From: Candidatus Pacearchaeota archaeon
GTDB lineage: Archaea > Nanobdellota > Nanobdellia > Pacearchaeales > GW2011-AR1
Length of the DNA stretch: 52,518 nucleotides
Direction: 5' to 3'
NCBI GenBank assembly: GCA_018303885.1
Contig: JAGVXG010000008.1
Location: forward strand, 1 to 52,518
In this document: piece after piece, positions 44,037 to 52,518 of the stretch
How positions within the stretch are numbered: position 1 is the first letter of the stretch
Layout: the number at the start of each line of letters is the position of its first letter
The notes under the pieces: generated by a model
Database searches by the model: none
Told to the model about the DNA's origin: nothing
Seen by the model: the letters and a program-made list of their open reading frames with translations, nothing else
Position numbers and translations under genes: made by a program

Positions 44037-44107
44037 TGGGACTACTGGGAGTCGAACCCAGGCATCGCGAGCTTCAGTCGCGTGTTCTCCCGTTGAACTA
44101 TAGTCCC
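44037..44107 (-). tRNA. tRNA-Phe(GAA)
   Basis: GGGACUA/UAGUCCC acceptor stem, CGCGA-CUGAAGC-UCGCG anticodon arm, GGUUCGACUCC T arm; CCA not encoded. Confidence 0.93.
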
Positions 44108-46021: not shown

Positions 46022-46374
46022 GTAAGTCGGGAATAGGCCAGCTTCTGTCAAACCCTGTAATCAGACGGTTTGTGTTAACATTCAACTAAGCGGCTTAAAG
46101 CCTTGCACCGGTTGAGACAGCCGTTTCATCAAATCTTTCACTTCGCAGTTCAACTCACGTTTCATAACTCTGTGAAAGCTGTGTCGTTTCTCTTCTGGAG
46201 CTTTCCTTCGCAGGAATCTTCCTTTCGAAAGACAACCTTAATGTGGTGGCCGGACCTTACCTCACGACGAGAACATTACTGTTCGCGAAGTCCCCGAAGG
46301 GCGAACTTAGAAATCATTTCTTTGATTTCTTGCTTAATTAAAAGCAAAGTCCCGAAGTTAACTACCCGACTTAC
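46022..46374 (-). ncRNA. rnpB: RNase P RNA
   Basis: P1 GUAAGUCGGG/CCCGACUUAC; CR-I GAGGUAAGGUCCGGC; AGAAAC and UGAAAC; GGUGCAAG; CR-V ACAGAAGCUGGCCUA. Confidence 0.92.
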
Positions 46375-49179: not shown

Positions 49180-49324
49180 TATTTTGAAAAGGTTTTTTGC
49201 TTAATAAAATCTATGGCGATGTTTTACAAAAAAGATTAAGAAATAATTATTATAAAAAACAACAGATAAGCAAGAGAAGTTTTCCTGATGTGTTCTGAAA
49301 CATACTAATAAGATTTTGTAAACA

Positions 49325-50260
49325 AAATCTCAATAAAGCTTTTAGTAGTTGTCTGCTGAAATTCTCGCCGAAGCTTGAATCTTACACAGCAACTCTATCA
49401 ACGTCGTCTTCTACGACGGCCTTAGTTGTCTCGTTTTGCGTGTGGCTTCGAGCTTAGATGCATTCAGCTCTTATCCAGATGACGCGTAGCTATGCAGCCT
49501 GCCATTTGACAACTGCTCACCAGAGGCGTCCGAGCCTGGTTCCTCTCGTACTACAAGCTCGTTACACTCAGACAACAACACACCTAGTAGATATCATACA
49601 AACTGTCTCGCGACGTTCTTAACCCAGCTAACGATACCTTTTAATGCGTGAACTCCGACACCCTTGCACGCTTCTGCACGCGCAGGATAGGTAGAGCCGA
49701 CAGCGATGTACCAAACCGCCCCGTCAATATGGACTATCGGGGGCGACAAGCCTGTTATCCTTGGGGTAACTTTTCTATCAGACACGGCTTCTATTAAAAA
49801 AGCACGTGGGTTCACTAGGCCAATCTTTCGATCATGCATTCCTTGCTAATCAGAATACATTCAGACAAGCTTTTGCCCTCGCACTCAACTCCGGGTTTCC
49901 AAGCCGGATGAGCTTGTCTTAGGGTCCTATCGATATTTTTTCGACAGGGCGCCGCCCCAGCCAAACTGCCCGCCTGTTACTGTTCTCATAAAGAGTAAGC
50001 AAAATTAAGAAAAACAAGTAGTATTACACTTTCGCTCCATCGCAACCTAAATTACGACTTCTACGCTCCTACTTATTCTATGTGTATCTCTTAAAATTAC
50101 AACAACAAGTTGCAGTAAAGTTCCACAAGGTCTTCGCTTCCCACTAGGTGTCCGTGGCATTTTCGCCACGAAGTGTGTTCAGAAGGTCCCAACTAGGGAC
50201 AGGGACAACCTCGTTAAACCATTCATGCACGTCGCCATTCAGACGACAAGGCATTACGCT
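49325..50260 (-). rRNA. rrl: 23S rRNA, 3' exon (about E. coli 1932 to the end; 3' end approximate)
   Basis: peptidyl-transferase region GGAUAACAGGCU, sarcin-ricin loop AGUACGAGAGGAAC, GCAUCUAAGC. Confidence 0.95.
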
Positions 50261-50338
50261 TATATTTGTTGTTCAATAATTGATCACTCAATTATTTTGC
50301 TTTATGTCGCCATAAAGATCGCACTCTATCTTCACAAC

Positions 50339-50560
50339 TTATTCTTCAGAAACAGATTTTGCACTTTCAATGACTTTTCGTGCTTCTCCACGAAATAGCT
50401 TGCTAGCATTTAATATCTCAATGGATGTCATTGAACCATCTTTTGCTATGTCTATAACTACTCCGTTTCCAATCTCAATGCTTTTCCAATAATCTTTATC
50501 ATTTATTTCTACATTGAGCACGTCTGCTTCGTCATCATACCATATTTCTTTTGCTTTCAT
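50339..50560 (-). CDS. DUF2283-like protein (putative antitoxin), intron-encoded in P8
   Basis: YD.EADVL.V, S.EI..GVVID...DG....IEILNAS motif. Confidence 0.85.
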   Translation of the reverse strand: MKAKEIWYDDEADVLNVEINDKDYWKSIEIGNGVVIDIAKDGSMTSIEILNASKLFRGEARKVIESAKSVSEE

Positions 50561-50561
50561 A

Positions 50562-50795
50562 TTAATTTAACCAAAATGCCGTAATTATAAATACTTTTCC
50601 TTTTGATTTTTTATATACGACTTTTAAAGTTCTTCCAGATTGTGGAATTTTGGAAATTGCATTTAAAGCATCTTTCCACTCTTTATCTCTTAGTTCTTTT
50701 GAATTGCTAAGAGCATACTCTATCATATCATTGGTTATATCTTTTCTCTTCTTGAGTTTTTTCTTCAACCAATGCTTAGAATATTCTATTTCCAC
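50562..50795 (-). CDS. DUF4258-like protein (putative RelE/BrnT-fold toxin), intron-encoded in P8
   Basis: I.YSKH....R..I....I...L and GR.LKVVY.......IITA motifs; coupled to the DUF2283 gene. Confidence 0.75.
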   Translation of the reverse strand: MEIEYSKHWLKKKLKKRKDITNDMIEYALSNSKELRDKEWKDALNAISKIPQSGRTLKVVYKKSKGKVFIITAFWLN

Positions 50796-50862
50796 TAATT
50801 CTGAAATATGTTAGATTTTATATAAATTGTGTCGAGCGTATTAGTGTCTGAGGATTCTAGAA

Positions 50863-51165
50863 TTAATTTTTTCTTAATTTATCTTCAAGCTTTTCAGTTC
50901 CTAATGAGATATCTAATAAAGAATCTTTTGATAAAACATTAGACTCTAAAAGAGGTCTAACATCAACTAACTCATGATCAGTATTTTCTCTAGGAAAAAA
51001 ATTACCATATCTTTCTATTGTCTCCTTATCACCACATACAGGTATTCTATATCTTCCTCTAGATGTTAAAGATACTGATTCACTCTTATATACATCATTT
51101 GTATGAAGGATTCTAAGTGTTCCATCATCTGCTCTAGTAGCATACGCGTATAATTCATATGTCAT
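50863..51165 (-). CDS. hypothetical protein, intron-encoded in P6
   Basis: 100-aa ORF with its own TTTATAAA box at about 51188-51195; no LAGLIDADG, HNH or GIY-YIG motif visible. Confidence 0.65.
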   Translation of the reverse strand: MTYELYAYATRADDGTLRILHTNDVYKSESVSLTSRGRYRIPVCGDKETIERYGNFFPRENTDHELVDVRPLLESNVLSKDSLLDISLGTEKLEDKLRKN

Positions 51166-51568
51166 GATTTTTTAATAGAAAAACACTTTATAAACCTTTC
51201 TCTTTGTTACCTTTTTAAAATAATAACTAATTCTAGTCTTTCCTGCATGGTTGTCCGCAATTTGAGATTTTTACCATCAATTTCTCGACGGTACTCAAAT
51301 ATTCTCGGACGTTCCAGCATATAGCTCGATTTTCTTCTTTGGTTTAACTCTTATTTTAATTCTGTAACTCTTAATTGCTCGCTGTTGCTCGATTAGTCTA
51401 AATTGCTAATAACAAAACCCCGCGAATTTTACATTAACATTTCTTATCAATCTTGCGAAGCACAATTTCATTTAACTATTTACTTTCTCTGACTCTTGAA
51501 GCGTTTTTCCCGTCGATAAAACGAGAAAACCGTAAGGCCACGTTTGTAACCACTTTCAAGTTACTGAA

Positions 51569-52278
<710 letters not shown>

Positions 52279-52335
52279 CATTCTATATTGTACTGGAGAA
52301 TTAAGTATCAACTTAACGTTGAATATGATTAAGGC

Positions 52336-52518
52336 TTAGTTGAAACCATGTGACGCATACCAATTTATAGAATCAATAGGAATTGTTTCAATTCCCTCTA
52401 TATTCAAATTTTCATCTCTCTGAGAACCATAAACCAAATGTTTTGGGGAATCGTTGCCAGGTCTTATTAAACAAACACCTGCAACATATGCTACCCTCAC
52501 AAATCCACCAGCTTCAAA
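52336..52518 (-). CDS. 3' end of an ORF interrupting the 23S near helix 45 (partial)
   Basis: open frame FEAGGFVRVAYVAGVCLIRPGNDSPKHLVYGSQRDENLNIEGIETIPIDSINWYASHGFN* where rRNA sequence is expected. Confidence 0.65.
   Translation of the reverse strand, partial: FEAGGFVRVAYVAGVCLIRPGNDSPKHLVYGSQRDENLNIEGIETIPIDSINWYASHGFN

Follow-up and report, generated by a model that had tools for sequence, protein, structure and literature searches.

The window, i.e., the whole stretch of 52,518 nucleotides analysed here, carries on its minus strand (49322-52518) a 23S rRNA gene of archaeal type (RF02540, 998.9 bits), of which the 3′ two-thirds are included. Downstream of the rRNA gene lie an archaeal RNase P RNA (46029-46295, minus strand, 117 bits) and a tRNA (44037-44107, minus strand), and the matches to RNaseP_arch and LSU_rRNA_archaea identify the host as an archaeon. 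The rRNA gene is split into two exons by an intervening element, organized as follows:

51569..52518, minus strand: 5′ exon of the 23S rRNA (RF02540), ending in CUCUUAAGGU and continuing beyond the window edge
50261..51568, minus strand: group I intron by homology and fold, 1308 nt, between AAGGU and AGCG, delimited by cmscan exon boundaries, intron-less relatives and same-site homologues
50261..50261, minus strand: terminal intron nucleotide (omega), an A, placed by cmscan boundaries, homologues and the sequence
49322..50260, minus strand: 3′ exon of the 23S rRNA, beginning with AGCGUAAUGCC

In the cmscan alignment, the archaeal LSU model breaks after ...UUAAGGU at 51569 and restarts with AGCGUAAU at 50260, and in seven intron-less relatives, which belong to the same genus or order, the gene continues unbroken through this point, ...TTAAGGT being followed directly by AGCGTAAT.... 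We take the insertion site to be L1931 of 23S rRNA. Two relatives from the same genus (L017 in G008:C39 and L021 in G024:C8) have their intron a few bases upstream of L1931 instead, between ...TTTG and CTTAAGGTAGCG; its last base is G. The window intron begins with UU; because it starts with U and the 3′ exon with A, the junction cannot slide, and the last intron base is the A at 50261. The intron thus lacks the terminal guanosine (omega-G) that is a hallmark of group I introns. As the assembly (720 kb in 17 contigs) has a single copy of this region of the essential 23S rRNA, removal of the intron is required, as the preliminary description of this DNA had claimed. In two RNA runs (X15 and X16), there is no cover within the intron. 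The exon forms found in these runs are a joint from 50260 to 51572 that includes three other letters, and loose ends at 50260; their exon letters do not match those of the window, so these RNAs come from relatives and say nothing on the splicing of the window intron.

P1 and the core helices P3, P4-P6, P7, P8 and P9, together with the P, Q, R and S elements that characterize group I introns, are all present within the element, at the following positions:

51533..51538, minus strand: internal guide GCCUUA, forming P1 with exon UAAGGU, with U.G at the 5′ splice site
51543-51540, minus strand: ACGU, which can pair with exon GCGU (P10)
51324..51329, minus strand: 5′ strand of P3, UCGAGC, whose partner is GCUCGA at 50837-50832
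51245..51318, minus strand: P4-P5 domain, with P4 made of GCUGG (51318-51314) and CCAUGC (51250-51245)
51244-51241 and 50854-50851, minus strand: P6, coordinates checked on the sequence
51236-51229 and 50864-50857, minus strand: P6a, whose loop holds a 100-aa ORF
50832..50837, minus strand: 3′ strand of P3, GCUCGA, supported by pairing and covariation in variant cores
50848-50843 and 50325-50321, minus strand: P7, coordinates checked on the sequence
50831-50826 and 50338-50333, minus strand: P8, whose loop holds a two-gene cassette
50317-50300, minus strand: P9 hairpin with a GCGA loop, from alifold and compensatory changes
50296-50275, minus strand: P9.1 hairpin with a GUGA loop, from alifold and compensatory changes

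This fold is shared by relatives of the window intron that carry the same unusual core (the variants described below). Across 21 distinct variant cores, all cells of P3 are paired (126 of 126), with two to three pair types at four of the six P3 pairs, and as many as six pair types occur at a single position in P4, P5, P6, P6a, P8, P9 and P9.1. P7 is invariant among the variant cores, and its support comes from sequence alone. In homologues, the internal guide also covaries with the host exon (GCCGUAG with CUACGGU, GCCAUAG with CUAUGGU, and GUUUA with UAAAGU). The window intron contains ORF inserts totalling about 760 nt, and for this reason the Rfam model Intron_gpI (RF00028) gives no match to it even at E<=10; the compact homologue L153 matches the same model at 31.6 bits (E 1.5e-6), under its gathering score of 50 bits. 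By homology and fold, the window element is a group I intron.

The guanosine-binding pair of this intron is inverted. With positions 264, 307 and 311 given in what we take to be Tetrahymena numbering, the two strands that build the nucleoside pocket read:

50843..50848, minus strand: 5′ strand of P7, GACACU, with C264 at 50846, followed by J7/3 AAUA, one base longer than canonical
50321..50332, minus strand: J8/7 and 3′ strand of P7, AAGAUAG-AGUGC, with G307 at 50326 and G311 at 50322

Canonical homologues at the same site have CCUCAGAGACUA as R, AAGAUAUAGUCC as S and a terminal G, whereas the window intron has CCUCAGACACUA as R, with C264 at 50846, and AAGAUAGAGUGC as S, with G311 at 50322. 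In the Rfam Intron_gpI alignment of the compact homologue, the variant C and G fall on the consensus G and C of the model. The conserved G-C pocket pair of group I introns is thus absent from the window intron, with C at 50846 and G at 50322. Three further changes accompany the swap. U307, the base found in most canonical introns, is replaced by G at 50326; J7/3 carries a one-base insertion (ACUAAUACG versus ACUA[CU]ACG); and the 3′ strand of P4 contains a one-base U bulge seen in the window only (CCAUGC versus UCAGC in 20 of 20 other variant cores). This extra U (51245-51250) is also found in two other DNA data sets. Contigs from two other DNA studies (X5 and X6) show no differences from the window over 50308-51598, a range that covers both 50322 and 50846, and the comparison lists no differing letter at 50261.

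These results uphold the core of the preliminary description. Its assignment of the element to group I is borne out by homology and fold; the swap of G264-C311 to C-G at 50846 and 50322 is seen alike on the sequence, in the Rfam alignment and in the X5 and X6 contigs; and the terminal residue at 50261 is indeed A, at a junction that cannot slide. Its call to confirm the individual bases is answered, as far as contigs can show, by the same contigs, which are identical at 50846 and 50322 and have no difference listed at 50261. G307, the J7/3 insertion, the P4 bulge and the clade-wide sharing of the variant state, set out below, go beyond it.

The loops of P6a and P8 are filled with coding sequence:

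50863..51165, minus strand: 100-aa ORF in the P6a loop, with no Pfam family
50339..50795, minus strand: two-gene cassette in the P8 loop, a 77-aa DUF4258-like ORF plus a 73-aa DUF2283 ORF
50562-50795, minus strand: 77-aa DUF4258-like ORF (Pfam DUF4258, E 6.8e-4, below cut-off)
50339-50560, minus strand: 73-aa ORF (Pfam DUF2283, E 2.3e-13)

Where the window intron has the 100-aa ORF, relatives carry LAGLIDADG genes in the P6a loop, and unrelated small ORFs occupy this position in five introns (L010, L022, L156, L161 and L174). By ORF list and Pfam, the window intron has no LAGLIDADG ORF. All eight variant-intron ORFs tested against Pfam are intact LAGLIDADG endonucleases, seven of them LAGLIDADG_1 (E 1e-22 to 1e-25) and one LAGLIDADG_3, and several variant introns have no ORF of at least 60 aa. 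The DUF4258-like/DUF2283 pair resembles, as far as we can judge, a toxin-antitoxin-type cassette. Two relatives have stretches with 69% identity to it at places other than rRNA genes (G006:C5:68526-68966 and G005:C38:5076-5515), and so the cassette seems to be independently mobile.

The inverted pocket is found well beyond this archaeon. A 15-mer scan of genome contigs screened 119 loci, of which seven were real introns and the rest chance matches; besides the window's own sequence (L056), the seven comprise six true homologues in records of CPR bacteria. A motif-pair scan of metagenome contigs added 33 further C264:G311 loci, eight with archaeal-type exons and the others with bacterial-type exons, and the variant motif pair had no match in viral contigs. 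Altogether, C264:G311 introns whose 3′ end is readable occupy the same rRNA site in 38 other loci of CPR bacteria and DPANN archaea (6 from genomes and 32 from metagenome contigs), each of them with G307 and a J7/3 of AAUA[CU]G (38/38). Their terminal base is A in 36 cases, U in two (L153 and L176) and G in none, so that with the window included 37 of 39 end in A, two in U and none in G. Reduced to 30 distinct cores, 28 end in A and two in U, and the penultimate base is U throughout; positions 264 and 311 and the penultimate base are fixed across these cores, whereas the surrounding tail varies. The two U-ending introns (L153, 266 nt, and L176, 354 nt) both start with GGGAAGC and end in ...GGAUU, and are not sisters in the tree. 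Among the A-ending members, the L126 type measures 319 nt and the L026 type 447 nt. One record (L134) is labelled as a gammaproteobacterium; its 23S exon and intron look CPR-like, which may be a binning or labelling issue. In L155, the 3′ exon is broken again about 13 nt past the variant intron (AGCGAAGTTCCTC, then unrelated sequence), probably by a second intron.

A shifted splice site that would restore a terminal G was considered and rejected. It is possible only for introns starting with AG, whose 5′ splice site would then have a G in place of the U.G wobble, and it is impossible for the window intron, which starts with UU, as well as for L026, L147, L149, L155, L156, L161 and others.

The preservation of the C:G pocket with terminal A in 38 other loci, together with a covarying fold and intact endonucleases, shows that this state is clade-wide and reflects neither decay nor sequencing error, in agreement with the preliminary description. 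Likewise, the covarying helices and intact LAGLIDADG endonucleases indicate that the variant ribozyme lineage is alive, with its fold under selection.

To compare the variants with introns sampled irrespective of their pocket, we used a search pattern in which 264, 311 and 307 were left free. Among 400 genomes of the window's phylum, this neutral sample returned 29 matches, all G:C, of which 28 lie at the site and all 28 end in G; among 200 CPR genomes it returned 27 matches, again all G:C, of which 17 lie at the site, 15 ending in G and two in A. No pocket state besides G:C occurs in these neutral samples (400 phylum and 200 CPR genomes). Order-level relatives with a canonical G:C intron at the site end in G in seven of seven cases. 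Pooled, 50 of 52 canonical G:C introns at the site end in G and two in A. One of these two, L227 (G530:C3), is a compact intron without P9 whose first bases are UG and whose last base is unambiguously A, so a terminal A can coexist with an ordinary G:C pocket. The other, L224 (G534:C4), starts with AG, such that a two-base shift gives a terminal G; a second intron lies 14 nt upstream of it. L227 and L224 could each be an intermediate or a mismatched recombinant. In L199, the J7/3 and G307 of the variants are present, yet this intron retains the G:C pair and ends in G, indicating that the terminal base tracks the 264:311 pair and not the accompanying changes. Given the two variants ending in U and the two G:C introns ending in A, the pairing between pocket and terminal base is strong but not absolute. 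From the U-ending L153 and L176, the variant pocket would not be strictly adenine-specific for the terminal base, which suggests that it accepts a donor-acceptor edge common to A and U.

The free maximum-likelihood tree contains three changes of state between C:G and G:C; however, constraining 21 variants to one clade is not rejected (p-AU 0.58), and the association of pocket and terminal base may thus reflect a single evolutionary event that was then conserved, as opposed to many independent covariations. We count one origin of the variant state as secure, after which the state was long conserved and came to be spread over two domains. The association of 264/311 with the omega nucleotide, whose covariation the preliminary description had proposed to check, is seen in the counts (37/39 C:G introns ending in A, 50/52 G:C introns ending in G), subject to these exceptions and to a single origin that is not rejected.

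The window intron itself looks like a mosaic. Its P3-P6 half is 79% identical to the canonical intron L179 from the same host family, whereas the half from R to the end is 90% identical to the variant L161 and 66% identical to L179, a pattern that suggests recombination between co-resident or successive introns. The mosaic halves also explain the pairing of the window intron with L179 as sisters, and we accordingly claim no independent origins. R, S and the terminal base all lie within the 3′ module, so that joint inheritance or exchange is possible. The three coordinated changes noted in the preliminary description are thus all present, but they are not independent events in this genome, being inherited clade-wide within the 3′ module.

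Textbooks treat G264:C311 and the terminal G as invariant in group I introns, and software and databases assume both. A 1991 report by Been and Perrotta in Science names, in its title, self-splicing with adenosine and a single-site mechanism; reportedly, the C264:G311 double mutant of the Tetrahymena intron favoured adenosine or ATP in 5′ cleavage, and its exon ligation recovered once the 3′-terminal G was replaced by A. The window intron has both features of this engineered adenosine-dependent class, C264:G311 and a terminal A. In the passages of PMC4691833 and PMC2588497 that bear on the mechanism, one nucleoside pocket serves both steps of group I splicing, and parts of PMC5192423 describe the G-C pair as completely conserved and its C-G swap as abolishing guanosine recognition. 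In the mechanism that we propose, the P7 nucleoside pocket would have been re-specified by the change of G264:C311 to C:G, with U307 changed to G and an extra base in J7/3, and would no longer recognise guanosine. For exon ligation, the swapped pocket would dock the last base of the intron, an A or, rarely, a U, and, following the single-site logic of group I splicing, the same pocket would take an adenosine nucleotide in the first step, making exogenous adenosine or ATP the most likely nucleophile for 5′ splice-site cleavage.

We thus favour, with a probability of about 0.6, the reading that the window intron belongs to a natural mobile L1931 lineage with a re-specified pocket and a terminal A docked in it, for which we infer adenosine or ATP as the cofactor. 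The docking of the terminal A in the pocket and the adenosine-nucleotide cofactor are both inferred, whereas the base identities and their conservation, the covarying fold, the intact endonucleases and the placement in a single-copy essential rRNA are observed. That the clade as a whole starts splicing with adenosine or ATP, ends it at a terminal A and has been spread between CPR and DPANN by LAGLIDADG homing is a broader claim, which we hold at slightly better than even odds. A link of ribosome maturation to adenylate pools would be speculation.

The loose coupling between pocket and terminal base, with U ending 2 of the 30 distinct variants and A ending the canonical-pocket intron L227, allows another reading, in which the swapped pocket serves the second step only and the first step proceeds by hydrolysis, by weakly bound GTP or with the help of a host or intron protein such as a LAGLIDADG maturase. 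Many members do encode LAGLIDADG proteins, and some such proteins work as maturases according to a passage in PMC3984707. The single-site mechanism, as laid out in part of PMC4691833, instead predicts one pocket for both steps; moreover, the window intron lacks a LAGLIDADG ORF and several variants lack any ORF of at least 60 aa. We therefore regard this reading as rather doubtful, albeit one to be taken seriously. A less likely possibility is that the variants no longer complete splicing, the rRNA being cut into fragments by cellular RNases or the intron being tolerated, such that the C:G/A state is a relic hitch-hiking with a homing endonuclease. The weak Rfam scores would fit such a relic, as would the extra cargo and the P4 bulge of the window copy. 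A relic would hardly be expected to keep every core helix by compensatory change (21 distinct variants), to have a guide that tracks host exon changes, or to hold 264, 311 and the penultimate base invariant in 30 cores, and a terminal A in 28, amid a variable tail. Homing selects for the endonuclease gene, and alone it would not keep the P3-P9 pairing, the terminal base or the terminal dinucleotide in a variable tail.

Archaeal rRNA introns are often of the bulge-helix-bulge type, and with an archaeal host one could imagine removal by the tRNA-splicing endonuclease at such a motif, the group I core then being irrelevant. The co-fold of the junctions shows no such motif, neither junction lying in a 3-nt bulge flanking a 4-bp helix, and the members of the clade reside mostly in CPR bacteria, which to our knowledge have no tRNA-splicing endonuclease; this route is very improbable. 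Even harder to credit is an artefact of sequencing or assembly, which is refuted as far as contigs can show: over 50308-51598, two other studies have contigs identical to the window, and the same motif pair recurs in 33 contigs from metagenomes and in 6 further genome records.

If the preferred reading, a natural lineage with a re-specified pocket, is correct, the clade would be the first natural lineage of non-guanosine group I introns, an evolutionary replay of the engineering of 1991, and would show that the cofactor specificity of a natural ribozyme can evolve, with G:C introns ending in A, such as L227, as possible stepping stones. It would supply natural sequences, some of only 266-320 nt, for structural work on an adenine-binding pocket, on G307 and on the extra J7/3 base, as well as ready components for trans-splicing and RNA circularisation tools that run on ATP or end in A. 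Annotation that requires a terminal G would also misplace the boundaries of these introns in CPR and DPANN rRNA genes.

In a literature search over the main text of articles, neither a C:G pocket nor an adenosine type was found described for any natural group I intron, and the parts covered of a 2024 survey of CPR rRNA insertions, a 2014 review and a 2025 intron database contain neither an inverted pocket nor adenosine dependence. The closest natural relatives are the canonical L1931 introns with LAGLIDADG_1 endonucleases in DPANN and CPR (Tsurumaki et al. 2024, PMC11270868; the word guanosine has no occurrence in the text searched), which share with the variants the site, the fold, the endonuclease family and clear homology in sequence. 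These canonical introns have G264:C311 and end in G in 50 of 52 cases, whereas the window intron has C264:G311 and ends in A. The bacterium Coxiella burnetii also has a natural group I intron in its 23S rRNA that does not end in G, one that reportedly 'lacks the canonical omegaG' (Raghavan et al. 2007); by intron name, it occupies a different insertion site. With the engineered Tetrahymena intron reported by Been and Perrotta (1991), the clade has in common both C264:G311 and the change of the terminal G to A. That intron is a laboratory mutant of a nuclear rRNA intron, whereas the present state is natural and conserved among some 30 distinct bacterial and archaeal introns, and the natural clade adds to it G307 and one extra base in J7/3.
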